In this document: positions 39,269 to 51,316 of the stretch, one piece after another | How the letters are laid out: the number at the start of each line of letters is the position of its first letter | Numbering within the stretch: the first letter of the stretch is position 1 | Source of the DNA: an uncultured Geobacteraceae bacterium | GTDB lineage: Bacteria; Desulfobacterota; Desulfuromonadia; Geobacterales; CAIOGM01 | Assembly (NCBI GenBank): GCA_903902345.1 | Contig: CAIUUR010000414.1 | Coordinates: 2,353 to 66,352, forward strand | DNA: 64,000 nt | Reading direction: 5' to 3' | Position numbers and translations under genes: made by a program | The notes under the pieces: generated by a model | Database searches by the model: none | Told to the model about the DNA's origin: nothing | Seen by the model: the letters and a program-made list of their open reading frames with translations, nothing else

Positions 39269-40471
39269 ATGAAATACATAGTACTCCTTGGCGACGGGAT
39301 GTCCGATGAACCGCTGGATCAGCTGGGTGGCAAGACTCCCCTCCAGGTCGCCCGGACCCCCAACATGGACTTCATGGCGAGAAACGGGCTCCTCGGCCTG
39401 GCGGCTACGGTGCCGGAGGGGCTTCCTCCGGGGAGCGACGTGGCCAATCTGTCGGTCTTCGGCTACGATCCTCGGACCTGTTACACCGGTCGCTCACCCC
39501 TGGAGGCGGCCAGCATCGGTGTGGCGCTGGCGCCCGATGACGTAGCCTTTCGGCTGAACTTCGTAACCCTGCATCCCCAGGGAAGCAAGATCTACCTGCA
39601 GGACTTTTCCGCCGGGCATATTTCCACACCGGAGGGGGGAGAGTTAATCACTGCGTTGCGGGAACAACTGGAGGACCATGAGTTCCAGTTCTTTCCCGGG
39701 GTTGGCTACCGTCACCTCATGGTCTGGCGCAAAGGCCGTTCCGCCATGAAGACGGTCCCCCCCCATGATATCACCGGGAAGAGCATTCTGGATTACCTTC
39801 CCAACGGTGAGGGGGCTGACCGAATCGTCAATCTGATGAACAGTTCCCAGATGATCCTCCACGGACATCCTCTTAACAAGAAGCGGGAGACGGAAGGTCA
39901 TCTCCCGGCCAATTCCATCTGGCTCTGGGGGCATGGGCGCCCCCCGCGAATCAGCAGCTTCCGGGAGAGCTACGGCCTTTCCGGCGCTGTCATCTCCGCA
40001 GTGGACCTGTTGAAGGGGATCGGCATCTATGCCGGACTGGACAACATCTCCGTGGAAGGGGCGACGGGATACATCGATACCAATTACCGGGGAAAAGCGG
40101 AAGCCGCTCTGGAGGCGCTCCGGAGCAGGGACTTTGTCTATCTCCACGTGGAGGCTCCCGACGAGGCGTCCCATGCCGGACGCTTGGACCACAAGATCCA
40201 GGCCATCGAGGATTTCGACGCCCAGGTGGTGGGGACGGTGCTGGAGGGGATCAAGGAGCTGGGGGAGTACCGGATTCTCTGCATGCCCGACCATCCCACC
40301 CCGGTGAGTATCATGACCCATACCTCCGACCCGGTTCCCTTCGTCATCTACGGCGGGGAGGGGGTCAAGGGGAACGGCGGGGGAGCCTATGACGAGGCGT
40401 CGGCCAAGGCCACAGGCTACTTCGTTCCGGAAGGTTTCCGGCTCATGTCGCTGATGATGGGTCGGGGTTGA
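39269..40471 (+). CDS. apgM: Cofactor-independent phosphoglycerate mutase family protein (archaeal-type iPGM; some members of this family are proposed alternative homoserine kinases)
   Basis: Track ORF 39146..40471 overlaps xerD. Trimmed to ATG 39269 (MKYIVLLGDGMSDEPLDQLGGKTPLQVA...). Family recognised from the N-terminal metal-site motif and overall length. Confidence 0.85.
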   Translation: MKYIVLLGDGMSDEPLDQLGGKTPLQVARTPNMDFMARNGLLGLAATVPEGLPPGSDVANLSVFGYDPRTCYTGRSPLEAASIGVALAPDDVAFRLNFVTLHPQGSKIYLQDFSAGHISTPEGGELITALREQLEDHEFQFFPGVGYRHLMVWRKGRSAMKTVPPHDITGKSILDYLPNGEGADRIVNLMNSSQMILHGHPLNKKRETEGHLPANSIWLWGHGRPPRISSFRESYGLSGAVISAVDLLKGIGIYAGLDNISVEGATGYIDTNYRGKAEAALEALRSRDFVYLHVEAPDEASHAGRLDHKIQAIEDFDAQVVGTVLEGIKELGEYRILCMPDHPTPVSIMTHTSDPVPFVIYGGEGVKGNGGGAYDEASAKATGYFVPEGFRLMSLMMGRG

Positions 40472-41613
40472 CAGGGAAGCAGCAGAATGATACCCCCATG
40501 AACTGTCCGACCACCTCGAATAATCCGGACTATCTGCTCCGGATGGCTGGCGACGCTTGTTTCGACCTTTCCCTCGATCCGTTGCTGCTGCTGGATGGCG
40601 CCGGACGACTGGTCCGGGCCAACGGGGCCGCCCGTCGGGAGTTCCTTTTACCAGAGGAGAGTCCGGCGCTCCCGGTAACCGAACTTTTTGCCCGATATCC
40701 CCGAATCAGGGAAGAAATAGCCGATTTTGATTCTGCGAACGATTGCGTGGTCCAAGACGGGCGGGGACGGAGTTGGCGGGTGGTGAAGAGTCTTCTCGGA
40801 CCGGAAGTGAGTCGTTTGGGGCTTCTCGTCACCTTGCGGGAGGTCACGGAGTCCGTCCGGGATGAAGAGCTGCGGGAGCGTGCGGAACGGTGGCAAGCGC
40901 TGGAGCAGGCCGGAGTCGCTACGGTGTACAAAAATCATGAAACCGGCATGGTCCATTTTTCCGACGGTTTGAAGCGGATGCTGGGGTATGCCGCTGATGA
41001 GATCGACAGCCTGCAGACCGTTGACGCCTGGCACGGGATGCTCCATCCCCATGAACTTGAGCAGATCCTCTCAACCTTTCAGGCCGATGGGAAAGAGGAG
41101 GTATCCTACACCCATGTTGTGCACAGACTGTGCTGCAAGGATGGCGGCTGGAAGTGGATACATGCACTGGGAGCGGTCATCAGGCGCGATGCCGACGGTC
41201 GTCCGTTGCGGGGTGCCGGGGTTGTCACCGACATCACCTCCCTGAGAGAGGTCTGCCGGACAACCGGCGTCTCATTTGACTCTCCCGAGGATGCAGTGAG
41301 GACCACCTGCGACACCTGGAGATTACAGGAGATCCCCCTGCAGGTGGTAACCCCCGGTGGCGCCATTCTGCGGCTCAACAGCAGAGAGTCTCAGTTTTTC
41401 GGGATGTTGGCCGATGCCGCCCCGGTCATCCTTCCCCGCATGGATGCCATCACCGGCATCTACGGCCGGTTTGACGAATCCTCCGCCCACGCCTTTGACG
41501 TCCTCATCTCCCGTCTCCGGAAGAAGGTGGAGATGCTTACCTCTGCACCCTTTCCCCTCCAGACCCTCTACGGTCTCGGCTACCTCTTCGCGGCCCGCCT
41601 CACCCGGCGCTAA
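40468..41613 (+). CDS. One-component regulator: PAS domain(s) plus C-terminal OmpR/PhoB-type winged-helix, no receiver domain
   Basis: 381 aa. Central PAS region (…HFSDGLKRMLGYAADEIDS…WHGMLHPHE…GGWKWIHALGAVIRRDADGRPLRGAGVVTDIT). C-terminus …FDVLISRLRKKVE…LQTLYGLGYLF is typical of trans_reg_C. The start is TTG 40468 (overlapping the apgM stop) or ATG 40498. Confidence 0.7.
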   Translation: MTGKQQNDTPMNCPTTSNNPDYLLRMAGDACFDLSLDPLLLLDGAGRLVRANGAARREFLLPEESPALPVTELFARYPRIREEIADFDSANDCVVQDGRGRSWRVVKSLLGPEVSRLGLLVTLREVTESVRDEELRERAERWQALEQAGVATVYKNHETGMVHFSDGLKRMLGYAADEIDSLQTVDAWHGMLHPHELEQILSTFQADGKEEVSYTHVVHRLCCKDGGWKWIHALGAVIRRDADGRPLRGAGVVTDITSLREVCRTTGVSFDSPEDAVRTTCDTWRLQEIPLQVVTPGGAILRLNSRESQFFGMLADAAPVILPRMDAITGIYGRFDESSAHAFDVLISRLRKKVEMLTSAPFPLQTLYGLGYLFAARLTRR

Positions 41614-41744
41614 GGTAAAACATCCCCCTCTGTTGTTCCACCAAGAAACAAAAAACCCCATTTGACAGGGACGTACAGGATGGACCGGTGCGACCTGGGT
41701 ATTCGTATGTCATTGTCCTTTACATCCTTTATCATAAGCATTTG

Positions 41745-41870
41745 CACGCGGAGACGCGGAGAAACCAAACAAAACAAGTTAATTGCAATAGCATCACCTT
41801 AACCTGATTGGTGTAGACTTCGTCTGTCCCAACGTCTTGATTTTCTCCGCGATCTCCGCGTCTCCGCGTG
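41745..41870 (+). repeat. Hairpin element copy A (tandem-octamer arms, unit CGCGGAGA)
   Basis: Left arm CACGCGGAGACGCGGAGAAA (41745-41764). Right arm TTTTCTCCGCGATCTCCGCGTCTCCGCGTG (41841-41870). 18 nt are perfectly complementary. The inner motifs AACC, GTCTGT and TGATTTTCTC are shared with copies at 47685 and 63584. Confidence 0.8.
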
Positions 41871-41930
41871 ATACACGTCTCTCTTTGTTGCTCCACTCCG
41901 AACTCTTCCGGCATCTTCCAAACGTAACCT

Positions 41931-41968
41931 GTGAGAATTGGTGAGAATTGGTGATAATTGGTGAGTAG
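41931..41968 (+). repeat. Tandem 10-mers upstream of the first PEP-CTERM gene
   Basis: GTGAGAATTG GTGAGAATTG GTGATAATTG GTGAGTAG, i.e. 3.8 units with one helical-turn periodicity, about 57 nt upstream of ATG 42025. Confidence 0.8.
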
Positions 41969-42024
41969 CTTTCTTCCCGGTTTTTCAGGATACTGGCCGC
42001 TCATCAATAAACCGGGAGATGCAT

Positions 42025-42798
42025 ATGAAAAAAAGCATCATGTCATTACTCACGTTGGCGGCACTCACTTTTTCCCTGACCGGTTTGGCCCAGGCAAGCG
42101 TCATAACCTACAGCGTTCAAAGTAACGGAACCATAGCCCATACGTTTAGTAATGGAAATGCTGGCACGAGACCCTCCATCGGTGACTATCTTGCCACCGA
42201 TGGAACCACGTATACGGGGGGGACAACGTTACCGAATCTTTCCGGGGCCATGACTGTTGGTGACACCTTTGAGATCGATTTCCTTGCACCTGTTGGGAAG
42301 CAGTTCACTATTAACCCGACTCCTGGTTGGACGAGAAACAGGAGTTTGGAAATATACCTCGGCCAACCGTACATAAATTCCGGTCCTTCTTCATCTCTGG
42401 GTAGTATGACCTTTGAATGGTTGAACCCGACCGGTACGGCAACACCTGTGACATCTGAATACGAAGCTTTTTACTTTGGTGCGAACCCTTCAGACATGAG
42501 AATACAACTCAATATAAGCAGTACCATTCCCTCTGATTTCAGTTTCACGGGGTTCAAAGCATCATTTGTCGTTCCCAGCGGTTTTAGCGCCACCTATACC
42601 AATTCACCGTGGCAGAGTAGCTACATAGAGTTTTATAATAGAAATTCGGCAAATGGCAGTGTCACTGACCCGGGCGTTGCCGTGACGCTGGGTAATGCTC
42701 CGGCCACCGTACCCGAACCCTCAACGTATGCCCTCCTCTGCATCAGTCTTGGCGTGGTGGGGTATGCACGGAAGAAGCATATGAAGAGTGCGGCATAA
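42025..42798 (+). CDS. Secreted PEP-CTERM-anchored protein
   Basis: Signal peptide MKKSIMSLLTLAALTFSLTGLAQA. C-terminus VPEPSTYALLCISLGVVGYARKK is a PEP-CTERM sorting signal. ATG 42025 lies 6 nt after GGGAG (the track ORF starts at 42019). Confidence 0.8.
   Translation: MKKSIMSLLTLAALTFSLTGLAQASVITYSVQSNGTIAHTFSNGNAGTRPSIGDYLATDGTTYTGGTTLPNLSGAMTVGDTFEIDFLAPVGKQFTINPTPGWTRNRSLEIYLGQPYINSGPSSSLGSMTFEWLNPTGTATPVTSEYEAFYFGANPSDMRIQLNISSTIPSDFSFTGFKASFVVPSGFSATYTNSPWQSSYIEFYNRNSANGSVTDPGVAVTLGNAPATVPEPSTYALLCISLGVVGYARKKHMKSAA
42712..42776 (+). repeat. 65-bp PEP-CTERM tail cassette, copy 1 (copy 2 at 43982-44046)
   Basis: CCCGAACCCTCAACGTATGCCCTCCTCTGCATCAGTCTTGGCGTGGTGGGGTATGCACGGAAGAA differs from the copy at 43982-44046 at 2 positions. 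The rest of the two proteins is unrelated by eye. Confidence 0.9.
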
Positions 42799-43457
42799 TG
42801 GGCAACTTGCATTCGTTCATTGACCGTCTTGGTCCAGCTGCTCCTCAAAGGAACGTAATTATAAGACTTGCCTTCACGAGGATATTCTCAGTTATTCTGA
42901 CGGTATTCTTTACGACTCTTTGCCTAACGACCGTAGCGACGGCCGCCATCAGCAGGGTTCAGTACACTACCGGCAACAGTGGCGGAGATAACGGTATCAA
43001 TGCCATTCCCCTGACATCATTAACCACAACTCCGGTAAATGGTAACACTCTGATAGCTGCTATTTCCTACTTTGGCGCTGCATCGAATATGATTTCTTCC
43101 ATCGACCAATCCGGCGTATCCTGGTCGCGGGTGACCCAGTCTCTCAATAATTTGGGTATCGGGACCGAAATCTGGTATGCCCCGAATGTTTCGGGTGCCG
43201 GTAAGGATATCACGGTCAACCTGCTTGCGTATACGGGCGCTTCTGCGGTAGTGGCCGAATACCAGGGACTCCTGACCGCAAATATGGTTGATCTCACGGC
43301 CGGAGCCACCGGTAGCACCACTCCTGCCACGACCGGTGCCACGGCAACCACTGCCCAGGCCACGGAACTCTGGTTTGCCGGGGTGGGCTTGAACAGCAGT
43401 ACCGCTACGTTGGGCACCTACACGGGGAGCGACAGCTTTTACAATATGTTGCGTTGA
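42798..43457 (+). CDS. Hypothetical membrane-anchored/secreted Thr/Ala/Gly-rich protein
   Basis: 219-aa ORF whose ATG overlaps the upstream stop (TAATG). Has an N-terminal hydrophobic helix (IFSVILTVFFTTLCLTTVATAA). No recognisable domain. Coding status rests on coupling and position only. Confidence 0.5.
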   Translation: MGNLHSFIDRLGPAAPQRNVIIRLAFTRIFSVILTVFFTTLCLTTVATAAISRVQYTTGNSGGDNGINAIPLTSLTTTPVNGNTLIAAISYFGAASNMISSIDQSGVSWSRVTQSLNNLGIGTEIWYAPNVSGAGKDITVNLLAYTGASAVVAEYQGLLTANMVDLTAGATGSTTPATTGATATTAQATELWFAGVGLNSSTATLGTYTGSDSFYNMLR

Positions 43458-43486
43458 ACATCTCTCGGCCCCAAGGAGGCTGTATC

Positions 43487-44071
43487 ATGTTTAAACAGAT
43501 CATTACCCTCTGCACTCTGTTCCTCTTTCTCGTGGCTCCCGCTGCCCGGGCGTCGGTCCTGACCTTGGACAACCAAGAGCTGTTCGGCGCTCCGGGGAAC
43601 AGCGTCGGTTGGGGCTTCTCCATCTATAACGATTCGGCTTTTGACCTCTATGTTTTGCGGGTCTACTCCGACGGCACCCTCTTTGGCACCAGTGGAGTCA
43701 GCGTCCTGGGGGCCTTTCGCGATGACATCGCCTACGAGACCAGCAATAACGGTATCATTGTGGCGTCACTGGCCACGGCAAACGGAGCCTTCCCCGTTGA
43801 CGGTTTGGCCAGCTTTGTCGTTAACTCTGGTGCTCCGGTGGGTGGGTCGGTAAACGGCAAGATCTATCTGGATTATGAACTGTATGACAGCAATGTGGAT
43901 TTTCAAGGAGCGGGGAAATTGACGGCTCAGTATAGCAATCAGGACGCCTTGGCCTCCATCACCGTTACCAGTTCCGTCGTCCCCGAACCCTCAACGTATG
44001 TCCTCCTCTGCCTCAGTCTTGGCGTGGTGGGGTATGCACGGAAGAACGTGGCGAAAAACCGAAGAGATTAA
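43487..44071 (+). CDS. Secreted PEP-CTERM-anchored protein
   Basis: Trimmed to ATG 43487 after AAGGAGG. Signal peptide MFKQIITLCTLFLFLVAPAARA. C-terminus VPEPSTYVLLCLSLGVVGYARK. Confidence 0.8.
   Translation: MFKQIITLCTLFLFLVAPAARASVLTLDNQELFGAPGNSVGWGFSIYNDSAFDLYVLRVYSDGTLFGTSGVSVLGAFRDDIAYETSNNGIIVASLATANGAFPVDGLASFVVNSGAPVGGSVNGKIYLDYELYDSNVDFQGAGKLTAQYSNQDALASITVTSSVVPEPSTYVLLCLSLGVVGYARKNVAKNRRD
43982..44046 (+). repeat. 65-bp PEP-CTERM tail cassette, copy 2
   Basis: 63/65 identical to 42712-42776. Confidence 0.9.
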
Positions 44072-44137
44072 ATGCATGAATATTCCTGTTTTCTCAAGCC
44101 GCCGGGTGAGCCGTCGAAACAAAAAACGGGAGACGGG

Positions 44138-44233
44138 AAGGGGGGAAGGGAACGGAGGGGAGCCTGCGATGAGATTTCGGCCAAGGGCGCCGGCTACTTT
44201 GTTTCGGAAGGTTTCCGGCTCATGTCACTCTGA
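44138..44233 (+). pseudogene. Displaced, decayed 3' end of the apgM-family gene (direct repeat of about 40358-40471)
   Basis: The core 44176-44229 matches 40399-40452 at 47/54 positions. It reads CDEISAKGAGYFVSEGFRLMSL*, against YDEASAKATGYFVPEGFRLMSLMMGRG* in the intact gene. The upstream part is frameshifted by a 1-nt deletion. Confidence 0.75.
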
Positions 44234-44712
44234 TGGGGCAGAGCCAGCTTTTTTTTGAGCCGGGGATCGAAGGGCAAAGGGACCGCTTCAATAAGCCGAA
44301 CCTCGGCGTAACCAGGATGTGCCGGATTCAGAACCAGATTCCACGCTTTGCCGTAGGGGAGCATGACCGAGGGGACTCTCAGGGCAACCGTCTCTTGTTG
44401 CCTGAGCCATTCCATCCCGATCCGGATGGTGGAGAGGTCCGGCGGTCGGGCGGACCACATGGCGGGGAGACGATCGGCCGTCAATTCCCGCACTGACAGG
44501 TTGTCCGGCGCTTCCAGTGTCACCAGCATGAGATCCGGGGGGGCGCCGGTTTCCGGGAAATGGGGTAGATACTCAAGGAGCGCCTGGGACGGACTTTCCG
44601 CCGTATAGAGAGCGGCCATCCCTTTCGGGTTCCATCGGCCACCGTACCGTTGAGCGCCGAAGCCGCTCACATCATGAGCAAACCGCTCCGCCGCAACCCG
44701 ATAGATGAGCAT
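44194..44712 (-). CDS. RES-domain toxin (NAD+-targeting RES family of type II TA systems)
   Basis: 172 aa, ...QRYGGRWNPKGMAALYTAESPSQALLEYL...LRVPSV... gives the R-E-S signature. Its ATGA overlaps the upstream antitoxin stop. Confidence 0.85.
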   Translation of the reverse strand: MLIYRVAAERFAHDVSGFGAQRYGGRWNPKGMAALYTAESPSQALLEYLPHFPETGAPPDLMLVTLEAPDNLSVRELTADRLPAMWSARPPDLSTIRIGMEWLRQQETVALRVPSVMLPYGKAWNLVLNPAHPGYAEVRLIEAVPLPFDPRLKKKLALPHQSDMSRKPSETK

Positions 44713-45194
44713 CAGATGAAGACCCCCTGTTCGATCCTCCCCAACTCGTCCAACACCAGCTCCATGCCGGGAATGGTGTCCAGCAATGTTGTCGGTGAAA
44801 TGCCACCCAAGGCGTAATTGGGACTTTTCAGCCAGACGGCGGCCTGAACTTCATCTTGAAAAACTTCTAAGGCGCGACAGTAGACCCGGATCAACTGAGC
44901 CACCCGGTCGGAGAGATGGGGGCTGAGGTTTGATCCGGCTTCGATGTGACGCTGCAGGGTTCGGGGCGTGGTGTGCAGCCACCCCGCCAGATCCTTTTGG
45001 GGAACGTTCATCTTTCCTGCCAAGGCGGCTACAGCCCCTCCGGGGAGACCTTTCCTGATACGGTCAATTCGGGCGGCTTCGGGGCCGGTTCCCCAGGAAC
45101 AGCACTCCCCCGCAGTTCTCCCCTCCCCGCAGAGTAGCGCCATGAGGGAATCATTCTCCGTTATTGTCAAAAGATTGGTCTTATTCGAGTTCAT
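44712..45194 (-). CDS. Xre-type antitoxin with C-terminal RES-toxin-binding domain (DUF2384/MbcA-ParS like)
   Basis: Trimmed to ATG 45194 after AAGGAGG. HTH region (…QKDLAGWLHTTPRTLQRH…). C-terminus …AVWLKSPNYALGGISPTTLLDTIPGMELVLDELGRIEQGVF is typical of the family. Confidence 0.85.
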   Translation of the reverse strand: MNSNKTNLLTITENDSLMALLCGEGRTAGECCSWGTGPEAARIDRIRKGLPGGAVAALAGKMNVPQKDLAGWLHTTPRTLQRHIEAGSNLSPHLSDRVAQLIRVYCRALEVFQDEVQAAVWLKSPNYALGGISPTTLLDTIPGMELVLDELGRIEQGVFI

Positions 45195-45216
45195 GGCAGC
45201 CTCCTTGGTCAAGTTA

Positions 45217-45245
45217 ATTGTCGCACGGTCAGCGACAAATAGCAA
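45217..45245 (-). promoter_or_regulatory. Candidate TA-operon promoter with overlapping palindromic operator
   Basis: On the - strand: TTGCTA, 17-nt spacer, GACAAT. The perfect inverted repeat TTGTCGC-N7-GCGACAA (45218-45238) spans the spacer and -10 region. Confidence 0.4.
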
Positions 45246-45361
45246 CTGCTGCCGAGAAGATCTTTTTGCGCATTGGATGAAAACTCAAGGGTAGGACAAG
45301 GGTGAAACGCTCAAATAGTAGGGGGGCGTTCATGCTCACGGTGTAAAGAAATCCGAACTCC

Positions 45362-45961
45362 TCAGCGGTTGGACGAGGCGATGTAAACCGTGAAGCTCTG
45401 GCCGTTCCGGGTGAACCGGATCTGGTCCTGTCGGATCTCCGTGATCGTGGCCCCGGCCACCAGAGCTCCTTCCCCCAGGAGGGCGCCGTTGACCACGGCC
45501 CGCCGTGCGCCGTGCTCTTCCAGCCAGGCTATGCCGGTCACCTGGAAGTCGGCGGGAGGTGGTGTTGTCGTTTCCTTCAGCGCGCTTCTGGTCCGTTTCA
45601 GCTCGGGCGGGGGGCGTTTTGCCGGAGCGCGAAGGGGGGGATCTGCCGGCAGTTCAGGTACTGCCGCCGCCATCGGTAAAGGGGAGGGGAGGGAAGGCTC
45701 AGGGGGGGGGGGACTCTCCGCTCTGGCCTGAACTTGTGGGGGCGCCACGGGCGCGGGCTTGCTCGAGAGTCGCCCCATGACCCCCAGGGTTGCACCGACG
45801 GCAAGAGTGATGGCTCCCAGGAACAACAGCGGCAGCCGCCACGGGGGGGGAGGGGGTGCGCTCTTTCTCCCCGTGACCGCCGGACGGAGGTCAACTTTCC
45901 GGCCGAGGCGGGTCGCCTTCTCCTGCTCCAGTTTTTTCAGGGCGTCGAGGATGAGGCTCAT
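45362..45961 (-). CDS. GspB/ExeB-like type II secretion accessory protein
   Basis: 199 aa with MSLILDALKKLEQEK N-terminus, one TM helix and a Pro/Ala-rich linker. The C-terminal motif …VTGIAW…AVVNG…GA…I…IRFT… resembles the T2SS-B domain. ATGA overlap with the upstream ATPase gene. Confidence 0.7.
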   Translation of the reverse strand: MSLILDALKKLEQEKATRLGRKVDLRPAVTGRKSAPPPPPWRLPLLFLGAITLAVGATLGVMGRLSSKPAPVAPPQVQARAESPPPPEPSLPSPLPMAAAVPELPADPPLRAPAKRPPPELKRTRSALKETTTPPPADFQVTGIAWLEEHGARRAVVNGALLGEGALVAGATITEIRQDQIRFTRNGQSFTVYIASSNR

Positions 45962-47610
45962 CTTTTTTCTCCACCGTCATGAACCAGGGACGGGTTTGTG
46001 AACGCCTTACTTGTCCGGTAGAGGAGAAACAGGGTCTGCCGACCGATGGTTCCGTCCGGGCTGACCCCTTTGGCATTCTGAAATGACTTGACGGCGTCAA
46101 GGGTCTGTTTGTCCAGAACACCGGAGAGCGCCCCCTTGTAGACTCCGGCCTCCTGGAGGAGAGTCTGCAGTCGGGTAACCGTTTTTCCCCGTGATCCTGT
46201 CTTCATGCCGGGAGGGATGTCCAGATGATTCTTCCAGGGGAGATACGCTCTGCCGGACCAGATCCCTTCCAGTTCCGCCCCGCTGAGGCTCGTCCGCCCG
46301 GCAAGGGGGGGAGTGATGGTGTAGCGTCCATTGTCCGTACCCAACAGGGCCAGGTAGTGCCTGCCGGTGACGCCGGGAAGGGCCAGTTCCAGAATTGCGG
46401 GGGAATTGTACCGGAGGAGCCCCCCCAGGTTTCCACTGAAACGCAAGGTTTCCACTCCCCGTTCACGGGCCAGGACCTCCGGGAGGTCCGGCTGGGGCGA
46501 TGCCCAGGTTGCTGGAGGGACGTGCCAGCTTTCCGCCAGGGCATTGAATACGGCCAGGGCATTATCTTTCTCGCTTTCCGCCGCCATCGCTCGTGTCACG
46601 CTTTGGATGGAGAGAGGAATCGGAGTCGGCCGGCTGAGGTGACCCTTGGGGCTCTGGGGATAGGGTGAAATTGTTGCCACAGTTCTCTTCTCCGGTTGCA
46701 GTGCCTGCTCCCAGGTGAAGTAGAGGAGTCCTCCCCCCAGGAGCGCCGCGGCAAGAAGCGCCAGGGCTACGGCAGGTATCCGGCGGGGAGTTCCGTTTCC
46801 CGATGTGAGGTGGAGATCGGTGATGGCGGTTCTGGCCATTGCTCCGGTGAGGGGAATCTTTCCTCGGGTGTATCCCAGAAGAAGTGCCCGGTCGCAGGCC
46901 AGGTTGATCAGCCGGGGGAGCCCGCCGGAGAAACGATAGATCCGATGGAGTGCCCTTGGCGTGAAAAGGTTTGAATCTGCGGCTCCGGCCACCTGAATTC
47001 GGTGGGCGATGTAGTCGCGGGTGTCGGCGAGATTCATGGGACGGAGATGATAACTGACACCGACCCGTTGCCCCAATTGGCGCAATTCCGGACGGGCAAG
47101 GAGATCTCGCAGCTCCGGTTGTCCCACGAGCACGATCTGGATCAGCTTGTCCTGCTCCGTTTCCAGATTGGAGATGAGGCGGATCTGTTCCAGCACCGTG
47201 CTCCCCAGGTTCTGTGCCTCGTCCACCACGAGTACCACCGTTCGCCCGGCTCCGTTTTCCTCCAGGAGAAAACGATTGAGATCGCCTAGCAGGTCCGCCG
47301 TATCGGTATGTTCCACCGGGAGTCCGTACTCCCGATTGATGGATTGCATGAGTCCGAGAGAGGAGAGGCAGGGATTGAAGATGAGGGCGGTCCGGTACTG
47401 ATCGGGAGAGAGTTGTCCCAGAAGAGTCCGGATCACGGTGGTCTTCCCCGCGCCGATCTCGCCGGTAAGGGCGATGAATCCCACATGGTTGTCGATGCCG
47501 TAGAGGAGGTGGGCAAAGGCCTCATTGTGGTGGGCGCTGAGGAAGATGAACCCCGGGTCGGGGGTTATGTTGAACGGTTTTTCTCGAAATCCGTAGTAGT
47601 CGCAGTACAT
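45958..47610 (-). CDS. ExeA/GspA-like AAA ATPase with TM segment and C-terminal peptidoglycan-binding domain
   Basis: Track ORF starts at TTG 47634; ATG 47610 (MYCDYYGFREKPFNITPDP) is preferred. Walker A GEIGAGKTT and Walker B VLVVDEAQ. C-terminus …LQTLLQEAGVYKGALSGVLDKQTLDAVKSFQNAKGVSPDGTIGRQT is PG_binding_1-like. Confidence 0.8.
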   Translation of the reverse strand: MYCDYYGFREKPFNITPDPGFIFLSAHHNEAFAHLLYGIDNHVGFIALTGEIGAGKTTVIRTLLGQLSPDQYRTALIFNPCLSSLGLMQSINREYGLPVEHTDTADLLGDLNRFLLEENGAGRTVVLVVDEAQNLGSTVLEQIRLISNLETEQDKLIQIVLVGQPELRDLLARPELRQLGQRVGVSYHLRPMNLADTRDYIAHRIQVAGAADSNLFTPRALHRIYRFSGGLPRLINLACDRALLLGYTRGKIPLTGAMARTAITDLHLTSGNGTPRRIPAVALALLAAALLGGGLLYFTWEQALQPEKRTVATISPYPQSPKGHLSRPTPIPLSIQSVTRAMAAESEKDNALAVFNALAESWHVPPATWASPQPDLPEVLARERGVETLRFSGNLGGLLRYNSPAILELALPGVTGRHYLALLGTDNGRYTITPPLAGRTSLSGAELEGIWSGRAYLPWKNHLDIPPGMKTGSRGKTVTRLQTLLQEAGVYKGALSGVLDKQTLDAVKSFQNAKGVSPDGTIGRQTLFLLYRTSKAFTNPSLVHDGGEKR

Positions 47611-47684
47611 GAAAACCTTAAGAAATCGGGACAAGCCGGATCTAAAAAAAGATTGCCGGCGCTACGAAGAGCAAACACCTTTTT

Positions 47685-49229: not shown

Positions 49230-49272
49230 CTGTTTCTCCTTGTGTGTTGTGGTGATGATTTTGATGGATGGC

Positions 49273-49521
49273 TTAGGGGCGATCCTTGCCTTCGCCCGGT
49301 TTGTGATTTCCCGGTTTGTTAAAATCAGAGCGAAGACAAGATTCGCCCCTACGGTCGGACAAGACGATGATGCCATGGAAGTGGTTCGGCATGAGCCTAA
49401 AGGCGTCCAATTCCATCCCCGGAAACCGTTCCGGCAGTGACAGCCAAACATTATCGGCTCCCGCCCCTTCCTTTCGTTCCGCCTCGTTCCCTCTAACCTC
49501 GCACTGCGTTCCTATTATCGA
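49273..49521 (-). pseudogene. Remnant of an HUH (Y1, RAYT/IS200-like) transposase-family gene
   Basis: The - strand frame reads …[65 protein letters not shown] is the HUH motif in its usual context (…LD.F..MPNH.HGII…). The N-terminal part and the C-terminal Tyr-bearing part are missing. Confidence 0.6.
49274..49352. repeat. REP-like long palindrome inside the transposase remnant
   Basis: TAGGGGCGATCCTTGCCTTCGC (49274-49295) faces GCGAAGACAAGATTCGCCCCTAC (49330-49352). In either frame it encodes the GANLVFA / RA.ARIAP type peptides commonly produced by such palindromes. Confidence 0.6.
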
Positions 49522-49874
49522 GCATTATGGCGATCCGCTGTTGAAGCGAGATAACTTACCAATCTATGCAAAAGTTTACGGTGGCGGCTGCAAGAGATGG
49601 TTCCTATGCATCCGATAAAACTTGAAACAGGGAGCACCGCCAGAAAACCAAGACGAATAAGTGAAGGTGCTTTGAGGCCACTGCCCGTATAGTCCGAATG
49701 ATTTGGCTCGATGAGATCATCAAAACCGACAACCTGATGATGAAGTTGGGTGCTTACTCCGCAAACCAAAAGATCGCCAAAAGGAGGCATTTGCCGCAAT
49801 ACGATTGCCGGACGATTTTTCACTTGTCCGTTAGACTGTGGTAGTGGGGTCAGAACGACATTGCCCTCGTTCAT
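49515..49874 (-). CDS. PemK/MazF-family type II toxin (mRNA interferase fold)
   Basis: 119 aa, GNVVLTPLPQSNGQVKNRPAIVLRQMPPFGDLLVCGVSTQ…GL.APSLIRLGF matches the PemK-like pattern. ATGA overlap with the upstream small gene. Confidence 0.75.
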   Translation of the reverse strand: MNEGNVVLTPLPQSNGQVKNRPAIVLRQMPPFGDLLVCGVSTQLHHQVVGFDDLIEPNHSDYTGSGLKAPSLIRLGFLAVLPVSSFIGCIGTISCSRHRKLLHRLVSYLASTADRHNAR

Positions 49875-50083
49875 AATCGTACATCCGTAGTTTCGTATTC
49901 CGGTTCAACATCGCTGAAGGCCAAAGCCAGACCTTGTGCAGCCAGCACAGACCAAGTAGTGCGCTCAGGAATCGGTTCCGGAAGTACCGTCACGAGTAAT
50001 TGCGCATTAACCGGCAGGATATATTCTTCGTCCAACAGTATTTGGTTACCATCGTAATGGGCACGTAAGGCGACGGAAGGCAT
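49871..50083 (-). CDS. Putative cognate antitoxin
   Basis: 70-aa ORF translationally coupled (ATGA) to the MazF-like gene, with an acidic C-terminus. Assignment rests on position and size only. Confidence 0.55.
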   Translation of the reverse strand: MPSVALRAHYDGNQILLDEEYILPVNAQLLVTVLPEPIPERTTWSVLAAQGLALAFSDVEPEYETTDVRL

Positions 50084-50404
50084 AATTCACCCCTCTACAA
50101 TAGTTATGATAGTGCAGCTTACCGGCAACGTAGTATTGATTCAACAAGTTTTCAGATGCTTGAACTGAGGAAATGAAGGAAAAGTACGAGGTATTGAGTG
50201 CGGGCAGATCCTTGGTAAATGTCCGAAAATCGAACCTGGCCCGCGCCTCCCCGGTCCTTCACCCATGCCTTTACTTACACAACTTACCAGAGTCCTTGCG
50301 GTCTTCCCGTGATGTTGTCGGGCTACCCGGTGAGACGCCCGATTACTGAAATATGGCTTCATTAGATTCTGTTGTGTGCATAAAAAGGCAAGGGGAGGGT
50401 TTCC

Positions 50405-51316
50405 CTACGATGCTCGTACCACCAGCACCGTCTCTTCTCCCGCATTCCCCTCTACCCGCCGGGATTCGATACGGGTAAAACCTCCCGTTTTCAACCAACC
50501 CCTCAGCTCCACCTCGTCGAAGCCAAGCCACTGGTCCGCCAGTCGTTCCCGCACCCATTCCCGCTCGTGGCGGGCCAGATCGGCCAGCAGCAGTATGCCG
50601 CCGGGTACAAGTATCCGCCGGATTTCCGCCAGTACTGCAGCCGGATCGGCTGCGTGGTGGAGCACCATGGCAAGAAGCGCGCAGTCGGCGCTGTTGTCCG
50701 GCAGTGGCAGGTGAGTCATCTCCCCAAGACGGAGCTCTACGCCGCTCACCTTCCCCTTGGTCAACCGTCGACGGGCTTCATCCAGCATGGCGGGAGAATG
50801 GTCAACCCCGATGACCGTGGCGGATCTGGCTGCCAGGGCCGGCAGGAGACCTCCGGTCCCCAGCCCGATTTCCACCACGTTCTTTCCCTCGGGAACATAT
50901 GACAGCACGATATCCCGATATTCGGGCGCCGGGAGAAGGGTTCGCGCCAGATCATCCCACTGCCTTGCATGCTTGTCAAAGAACTCCCGGCTCCGGTTTC
51001 TTCGCTCTTCCAGCACCAGCGCCACGGCGCTGAGATCCTCTTCCCGCCGGGGGAGTTCCGTCAGCCCCTGCTCCAGCGCCGGACGGATGGCGGTAAAAAA
51101 GGGGGATTCCCCGCCGACACGGTAATAGCTCCAAGTCCCCTGCCGCTTTACGGAGAGCACTCCCGCCTCGGTGAGGACCTTCAGGTGATGGGATACTCGG
51201 GACTGTCCCGTTCCCATGATCCTGGTCAGTTCCTGTACGGTGAACTCACCCCGCAGCAGGATAGCCGCCAGACGGAGGCGGGAGGGGTCGGCAAGGGATT
51301 TCAGGGTATGAAGCAT
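50405..51316 (-). CDS. sahR: ArsR-family wHTH fused to SAM-dependent-methyltransferase-like domain (SahR-type regulator of the SAM cycle)
   Basis: 303 aa. ArsR HTH (LADPSRLRLAAILLRGEFTVQELTRIMGTGQSRVSHHLKVLTEAGVL) plus a methyltransferase fold (VVEIGLGTGG…GVDHSPAML). Lies between ahcY and metK, as described for SahR. Confidence 0.65.
   Translation of the reverse strand: MLHTLKSLADPSRLRLAAILLRGEFTVQELTRIMGTGQSRVSHHLKVLTEAGVLSVKRQGTWSYYRVGGESPFFTAIRPALEQGLTELPRREEDLSAVALVLEERRNRSREFFDKHARQWDDLARTLLPAPEYRDIVLSYVPEGKNVVEIGLGTGGLLPALAARSATVIGVDHSPAMLDEARRRLTKGKVSGVELRLGEMTHLPLPDNSADCALLAMVLHHAADPAAVLAEIRRILVPGGILLLADLARHEREWVRERLADQWLGFDEVELRGWLKTGGFTRIESRRVEGNAGEETVLVVRAS

Follow-up and report, generated by a model that had tools for sequence, protein, structure and literature searches.

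Introduction

Islands that carry an integrase and insert at gene 3′ ends typically leave a repeat of the gene end on both sides of the insert and a gene that is reconstituted. In integrative islands and integrative and conjugative elements (ICEs) a tyrosine recombinase acts at the ends of tRNA, tmRNA or protein genes. Homology-facilitated illegitimate recombination (HFIR) is known in naturally transformable bacteria. In Escherichia coli, single crossovers of circular DNA with the end of lacZ produced end duplications of 109–950 bp (PMC3240628). Here we analyzed a comparable duplication at the 3′ end of apgM, the gene of a cofactor-independent phosphoglycerate mutase, in a stretch of 64,000 nucleotides (the window) from an uncultured Geobacteraceae bacterium (GenBank assembly GCA_903902345.1, contig CAIUUR010000414.1, positions 2,353–66,352). 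An earlier note on this DNA had described an insertion bracketed by two diverged copies of the gene end and had inferred an integrated cassette without its own integrase. We found that the duplication is real, that relatives carry an empty site and that the extra DNA is composite. We favor, with a confidence little above even, two successive insertions, the second of them by a single crossover that would have displaced the original gene end.

The genes brought in belong to two further groups that have been described. Type II toxin–antitoxin (TA) modules of the RES-Xre group (ParT/ParS, MbcT/MbcA-type) are ~1 kb long, have the antitoxin gene first with a one-base overlap between the genes, and occur in varied contexts, all of which holds for the module in the window. 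PEP-CTERM genes have been placed under PrsK/PrsR sigma-54 control (Haft et al. 2006, PMC1569441). The PEP-CTERM genes analyzed here resemble the described PEP-CTERM/exosortase cargo in that the products are secreted and have a C-terminal sorting signal, and in the long non-coding upstream region with a conserved cis-element. Unlike in that system, the cis-element consists of 10-bp direct repeats beside the gene of a one-component regulator of PAS/OmpR type.

Results and Discussion

Duplication of the apgM 3′ end

The live apgM gene (39269..40471, plus strand) encodes a 400-aa protein that matches PF10143/PF01676, NF003242 (602 bits) and TIGR00306 (538 bits). The protein covers the family models at residues 1–397 of 400, indicating that the gene has been reconstituted. 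Local alignment of 40300–40480 with 44080–44260 paired 40354–40461 with 44134–44237, with four 1-nt gaps in total, and its score of 108 lies far above that of 300 shuffles (16.95 ± 2.4, maximum 26). A blastn comparison of 43400–44300 with the whole apgM gene gave 81% identity over 106 columns (E = 2.8e-21), and an ungapped core of 73 nt (40380–40452 versus 44157–44229) is 84% identical. The duplication reported in the earlier note was thus confirmed by both comparisons. Its count of 47/54 identical bases at 40399–40452 versus 44176–44229 was reproduced exactly on recounting, and so were its two peptide readings: the right copy ends in ...CDEISAKGAGYFVSEGFRLMSL-stop and the live gene in YDEASAKATGYFVPEGFRLMSLMMGRG-stop.

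The left copy (40354..40465, plus strand) completes the live gene, and homology to the apgM locus of a close relative, L002, is unbroken from upstream to 40465. The right copy (44134..44247, plus strand) is a decayed apgM 3′ end, most probably the original one. It contains three 1-nt indels, two of them within its G-rich 5′ part; the third gap, CT-CTGATG versus CTGATGATG, creates a premature TGA at 44231–44233, in agreement with its earlier description as a dead remnant. Gene callers recorded an ORF of 53 codons at 44072–44233 (MHEYSC...FRLMSL), which is an in-frame reading of the decayed apgM end; this ORF is a pseudogene fragment and no real gene. A further similarity, between 44118–44141 and apgM 39875–39897 (21/24 bases, with E = 0.023 for a very small search space), was considered as a sign of a larger rearranged pseudogene and was rejected as a chance match of purine-rich sequence.

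The empty site in relatives

With one genome per species, we surveyed 80 apgM loci, all of which belong to Geobacteraceae and allies. The gene is a core gene, and the order GlnD-XerD-ApgM is kept in L001–L004, L007, L009 and others. In the nearest relatives, L001 and L002, ApgM is 91% identical to that of the window (84% in DNA over the gene body), and both resemble the window in carrying GlnD-XerD-ApgM on the left and gspB-like/ExeA genes on the right. L002 is collinear with the window to 40465 and then again from 45362. The latter position is the stop of the gspB-like gene, the right-hand core flank (45362..45961, minus strand; weak match to PF16537 T2SSB, below cut-off), and it is exactly from there that the gene order again follows that of L001 and L002. 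Since L002 carries only 77 nt between the convergent apgM and gspB-like stops, terminator hairpin included, the 4.9 kb found at this place in the window are extra DNA, of which only the right copy resembles L002.

Three relatives (L001, L002 and L024) have a single apgM end and neither the cassette nor the RES-Xre module, so that the synteny comparison bears out the insertion proposed in the earlier note. A self-search revealed no second apgM end in any of the 80 loci, the sole match being a 17-nt hairpin in L031. The arrangement that the note had named as speaking against its reading, both copies without the cassette, was not found among these loci either. The ApgM strain variants L081, L115 and L116 all share the left junction, and no strain-level empty site was seen among them. 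A scan of JGI metagenome contigs for the apgM-end pattern GGNTTCCGGCTCATGTCNCT returned 25 matches, which we regard as chance since none of them encodes an ApgM relative.

What follows apgM differs from species to species. Genes for a TPR protein and FxsA occupy the 3′ junction in L001 (11219–13360) and, as a close variant, in L112 (4544–6684); L024 has a different short filler, and L079 has a gene for a PIN-domain toxin. Because at least 12 different downstream neighbors occur among the ~17 loci with the XerD-apgM arrangement, the apgM 3′ flank is a recurrent variable chromosomal spot.

The window comes from a metagenome-assembled contig, and a chimera of two strains could in principle imitate a duplication. 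However, the copies are just 83% identical and therefore cannot be a collapsed or mis-joined repeat. The order from apgM to RES-Xre, the 53-codon ORF included, was recovered on a 100.7-kb contig in two samples and in three further similar places, and L081, an independent assembly, has the left junction at 100% identity, the junction being likewise found in L115 and L116. An assembly artefact is, in the light of these data, hardly credible.

A separate observation concerns the body of apgM. A run of eight C at 39750–39757 is one base shorter in the read assemblies L115 and L116, where it splits the gene into ORFs of 188 and 211 aa; the assembly ERZ1426839 has the same split gene calls. This difference could be a homopolymer sequencing error or real length variation.

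The RES-Xre module

The right copy abuts a toxin–antitoxin module. The RES (ParT-type) toxin gene (44194..44712, minus strand) encodes 172 aa and matches PF08808 and NF049844 (153.5 bits, cut-off 110), with residues 4–152 covering profile positions 1–147 of 147. The Xre/ParS-type antitoxin gene (44712–45194) forms, with a palindromic operator region of ~50 nt upstream of it, the segment 44712..45245 on the minus strand; its product matches PF09722, PF20432 and NF049845 (111.1 bits, cut-off 90). The antitoxin gene is transcribed first and the two genes share base 44712. Identity to the independent modules L113 and L114 is 77% in DNA and limited to 44254–45245. As this homology stops at 44254 and the apgM-derived sequence runs to 44247, the module, judged from the two boundaries, adjoins the old apgM stop directly. 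The earlier note had treated RES as the ancestral neighbor of the gene. This part of its reading has to be revised: the module is itself inserted, as the three relatives with an empty site lack it, and it is probably an earlier insertion than the cassette, making the extra DNA composite.

The toxin of the window differs from the described RES-Xre modules in that it has no stop codon of its own and takes its tail from the antisense strand of a neighboring gene remnant. Residue 152 already completes the match to the RES family model, and homologs have 152–162 aa, versus 172 aa in the window; the stop and the last ~17 codons, a tail of ~17–20 residues, come from the antisense strand of the apgM remnant. 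The earlier note had seen this overlap and put it at ~12 codons, compared with ~14–17 in our analysis. The nearest RES homolog, P0036 (83% identity), bears a shorter version of this tail and ends in KLAPPHHQ*. Its eight end codons, stop included, are all antisense-compatible with ApgM SLMMGRS*, compared with at most four in the other tested homologs. The P0036 contig (1,948 nt, ERZ1426817) also has a convergent ORF, at least 168 codons long, that shares 24 nt, or 8 codons, with the RES gene. The antisense-compatible tail together with the exact 24-nt convergent overlap suggests that an intermediate state exists, and the P0036 contig most likely represents it, with an undivided apgM facing RES without the cassette. 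In the window, a 1-nt deletion in the right copy has two effects: the apgM frame is broken, and the stop codon that terminates RES in P0036 is gone, so that RES runs on for 11 codons to a TAG at 44194. The last ~17 codons of the RES gene are thus second-hand sequence, which calls for caution on the part of annotators, and a displaced gene end can live on inside a neighboring gene.

Proposed order and mechanism of the insertions

The left and right copies are 83% identical, i.e. 17% diverged, and the divergence between species is 16%. Compared with L001 and L002, the left copy reaches 89% identity over 82 nt and the right copy 77%; the stretch 44146–44247 of the right copy is 80% identical to the apgM end of L002 (11100–11203), and this match ends 6 nt before the L002 stop. 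In the part of the remnant that lies outside the RES ORF, 23% of the aligned positions differ from the left copy, gaps included, compared with a dS of 0.76–0.86 between the window and L001/L002. The two copies also have bases in common (GGAGCC, GTT) that were not seen in L001 or L002. From this divergence and the shared bases we conclude that the insertion event is old, yet younger than the split from L001 and L002.

The explanation that we favor, and in which we place slightly more trust than doubt, is that of two successive insertions, RES-Xre and then the cassette by a single crossover, with the right copy as the displaced original end. The starting point would have been an L002-like state, with convergent apgM and gspB-like genes and no extra genes between them. 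In the first step, RES-Xre (~44254–45245) would have landed at the apgM stop codon, giving a P0036-like state in which RES lost its own stop and its frame ended antisense inside the last apgM codons. In the second step, a self-contained module (~40470–44133) would have been joined into apgM ~105 nt from its end, by a single reciprocal exchange; the incoming DNA would have had an apgM end of its own. The donor, a close relative or a member of the same lineage, could have supplied a circularized piece of chromosome (a Campbell-type, RecA-dependent event), or the join could have been a homology-facilitated illegitimate event. The incoming left copy would then complete apgM, and the original end, pushed 3.8 kb downstream, would decay while still providing RES with its last codons and stop. 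That the right copy most probably is the displaced ancestral apgM end, as the earlier note had also proposed, is suggested by its contiguity with RES and by the antisense-compatible tail and 24-nt convergent overlap of P0036.

A direct duplication of a gene end around inserted DNA is the product expected of one reciprocal exchange with DNA holding that end, and an integrase can bring it about as well. The locus shares with Campbell-type and HFIR events (PMC3240628) a direct duplication of a gene segment that brackets the insert, the lack of a dedicated recombinase, and a gene left intact on one side. The homologous segment duplicated around the insert is ~105 nt long, above the RecA minimum. 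It differs from the described events in that it is natural, old (17% diverged) and deduced from one genome, with neither donor nor circle observed. We regard it as a recombination scar of an ordinary kind in a variable spot, and not as a new type of mobile element. It provides a clean, datable case of a small accessory regulon added without mobile-element machinery.

Several points weigh against this explanation. A donor with the order apgM then regulator was found in none of the other genomes, either among genome contigs or in the protein collection, in which close relatives are thinly sampled, and the order of the two insertions is not provable from one genome. The convergent ORF of the P0036 contig was called apgM from antisense compatibility and overlap length and not from a direct read; a search of the protein collection with the C-terminal 168 aa of ApgM returned no 168-aa fragment, and none turned up in the protein clusters. 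Upstream of Xre, no gene is called in 492 nt of the P0036 contig, and its right flank may differ from that of the window. Finally, conservation of the remnant is not significantly higher where it overlaps RES (Fisher p = 0.20).

The same junction would also be obtained if the remnant had arrived together with RES-Xre, from a P0036-type donor, in a lineage that already held the cassette. In that case the right copy would be foreign and the left one native, with an illegitimate join at 44133/44134, a second join further rightward and ~105 nt of the donor apgM end as a passenger. The contiguity of the right copy with RES fits this course of events, as does the same apgM/RES junction inferred in another genome, and the left–right divergence is close to that between species. 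At one position the right copy also shares Gly with L001 (SAKG), as opposed to Ala in the left copy and in L002. Toxin–antitoxin genes were inserted at other intergenic sites in the vicinity as well, namely a PemK-like pair at 49.5–50.1 kb that is absent in L001 and the PIN-domain gene of L079. However, three events are needed in place of two, with a precursor holding the cassette and no RES-Xre that has not been observed, and no relative has the cassette at apgM. The repeats enclose the cassette and not RES-Xre, which is the topology expected if the cassette came in, and both copies have derived bases in common relative to L001 and L002. We consider arrival of the remnant with RES-Xre unlikely, though of all the alternatives it carries the most weight.

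The regulator–PEP-CTERM cassette and its relatives

The cassette begins with the gene of a one-component regulator (40498..41613, plus strand), which has two PAS domains (PF08447, 9e-17; TIGR00229) and an OmpR/PhoB-type winged-helix domain (Trans_reg_C, PF00486, 9.9e-9), both Pfam matches being above the cut-off. Trans_reg_C scores 35.6 bits (cut-off 26.2), and the PAS domains stand in place of a receiver. The gene starts 27 nt past the apgM stop, and no terminator was predicted between 40471 and 40498; it is probably transcribed by read-through from apgM.

A promoter/operator block (41916..41996, plus strand) follows, with 3.5 direct repeats of GTGAGAATTG at 41931–41965, and it is 85% identical in two relatives of the cassette, L083 (4779–4855) and L082 (1518–1590). 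Winged-helix domains of the OmpR/PhoB type bind direct repeats spaced about one helical turn apart, and for this reason we read the GTGAGAATTG array as the predicted operator of the regulator, an assignment that is probable. Binding of the regulator to these repeats, and with it control of the PEP-CTERM operon, is probable.

Between the regulator gene and this block lies a hairpin element (41745..41870), an 18-nt perfect inverted repeat of CACGCGGAGACGCGGAGA (41745–41762 and 41853–41870) with a 90-nt spacer and a DNA fold of −30.3 kcal/mol (z = −5.5). Rfam gave no match for it, neither the window nor any fetched locus holds another copy, and the equivalent spacers of L082 and L083 lack a counterpart; it is lineage-specific filler. 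Both the hairpin repeat and the 10-mer tandem array had been correctly recorded in the earlier note. No Rfam match at all was found in 40300–45500, and the window has no tRNA or tmRNA gene. A 27-nt inverted repeat of 74% identity around the cargo genes (41596–41622 and 44087–44113) was discarded, as 17 other pairs of this quality arise by chance in 7 kb.

Three cargo genes follow on the plus strand. The first (42025..42798) encodes a PEP-CTERM secreted protein of 257 aa with the signal peptide ...GLAQA/SV and a sorting tail at residues 228–250 (PF07589, 26.6 bits, cut-off 20.7; TIGR02595). The second (42798..43457) is a 219-aa ORF with an N-terminal hydrophobic segment, without a PEP-CTERM tail and without a Pfam or NCBIfam match, and the third (43487..44071) encodes a PEP-CTERM secreted protein of 194 aa with the tail at residues 165–185 (PF07589, 27.4 bits; TIGR02595). 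Both tails, with PEP motif, transmembrane helix and basic end, sit at the very C-terminus, and the signal peptides of both PEP-CTERM proteins were read from the sequence. The gene content given in the earlier note was upheld by Pfam and NCBIfam for the regulator and the two PEP-CTERM proteins; the middle ORF is family-less, and its product is a membrane or secreted protein. The sorting-tail DNA of the two PEP-CTERM genes is 96% identical over 69 nt (42708–42776 versus 43978–44046), whereas the rest is barely related, which suggests gene conversion or tail swapping between the cargo genes. No sigma-54 −24/−12 match with up to two mismatches was found upstream of the cargo genes. The candidate regulator–operator pair would thus represent a control scheme unlike the PrsK/PrsR sigma-54 scheme and is a testable by-product of the analysis.

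Among 5.8 billion clustered proteins, the regulator has six relatives beyond itself. In all seven members, direct repeats with a 10-bp period follow the regulator gene: of GTGAGAATTG type in three members, of GTAACAATT type in L084, L085 and L117, and of GTGAGTATTT type in L118, so that the operator sequence probably differs between subgroups of the family. One or two PEP-CTERM genes follow the repeats in six of the seven, and the contig of the remaining member, L083, ends before any cargo could appear. The sorting tail, VPEPSTYALLCISLGVVGYARK, is near-identical among the PEP-CTERM genes of the family. The other six modules lie in at least four contexts, none of them at apgM: after a gene for an RNase D-like protein (L084 and L117), after an ABC transporter gene (L085), after a CdhD-like gene and small ORFs (L083), and after a 68-aa ORF that is antitoxin-like by eye only (L118); the upstream side of L082 is cut by the contig end. 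Gene calls on the stretches covered around the sister modules include no recombinase, and no apgM end was found to hold a second copy of the cassette.

These relatives bear directly on the model of the earlier note, in which a site-specific integrative element had entered the apgM 3′ end, leaving attL and attR, and its integrase was later lost or never carried. The locus is like integrative islands and ICEs in its repeat from a gene end, the displaced end, the reconstituted gene and the empty site in relatives. It is unlike them in several ways. The six ORFs between apgM and gspB contain no integrase, excisionase, recombinase, transfer or other mobility gene detectable with Pfam or NCBIfam, and the insert of 3.7 kb is far below the typical size of an island. 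The neighboring xerD gene upstream of apgM is conserved in ~20 relatives without the insert, and XerD is therefore a housekeeping protein and no part of the insert. The apgM-end repeat recurs at none of the 80 loci, indicating that the site is not reused. The cargo is a chromosomal regulator/cargo module whose sister copies stand in ordinary contexts, and the four checked for flanking direct repeats (L082–L085; not L117/L118) gave only short matches at chance level. The composition check proposed in the note gave a divided answer: the GC content of the PEP-CTERM genes is low (0.49–0.55, flanks 0.60–0.61), which fits the model, whereas that of the regulator gene (0.605) matches the flanks. A paralogous module is present in ERZ1426845, the metagenome assembly to which the window contig belongs, though not shown to be in the same genome. 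As a RecA-type crossover gives the same topology, we consider an integrase-type origin improbable.

The paralogous module also raises the possibility that the apgM end was first duplicated in tandem, by replication slippage or unequal exchange, and the cassette then placed between the copies, or that the module was copied by template switching. The derived states that the two copies share relative to L001 and L002 would agree with such a duplication. It requires an extra step, however, and it predicts downstream or RES-end sequence after the left copy, of which there is no trace, as the L002 homology stops at 40465 and the regulator gene begins at 40498. The cassette proteins are only 52–65% identical to those of the relatives, and the cassette is therefore no recent intragenomic copy. 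Taken together, these features make a tandem duplication very improbable.

A broader idea, to which we give distinctly little credence, is that the regulator–operator–PEP-CTERM unit is a "hitch-hiking" module that moves among the chromosomes of Geobacteraceae without a recombinase. If true, such units would be taken up with a piece of a neighboring core gene and joined by one homologous crossover, and the scar at apgM would be the first caught example. A side product would be a RES toxin with a new C-terminal tail, kept and derived from the antisense of the displaced end. Our results leave the current understanding of integration and of PEP-CTERM biology unaltered.

Other features of the window

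Two further observations concern the region to the right of the insertion. The gene that adjoins the insertion site beyond gspB (45958–47634, minus strand) encodes an ExeA/GspA-like ATPase with a peptidoglycan-binding domain. On TIGR03015, the model of the XrtA/PEP-CTERM system-associated ATPase, it scores 299 bits, just under the cut-off of 324.5, and a functional tie of the insertion site to PEP-CTERM biology is conceivable. At 49266–50405, between the genes for an AdoHcy hydrolase and an ArsR-methyltransferase, the window has a second small insertion relative to L001. It comprises a PemK/MazF-like toxin ORF (49515–49874, minus strand) and a 70-aa upstream partner (49871–50083, minus strand).

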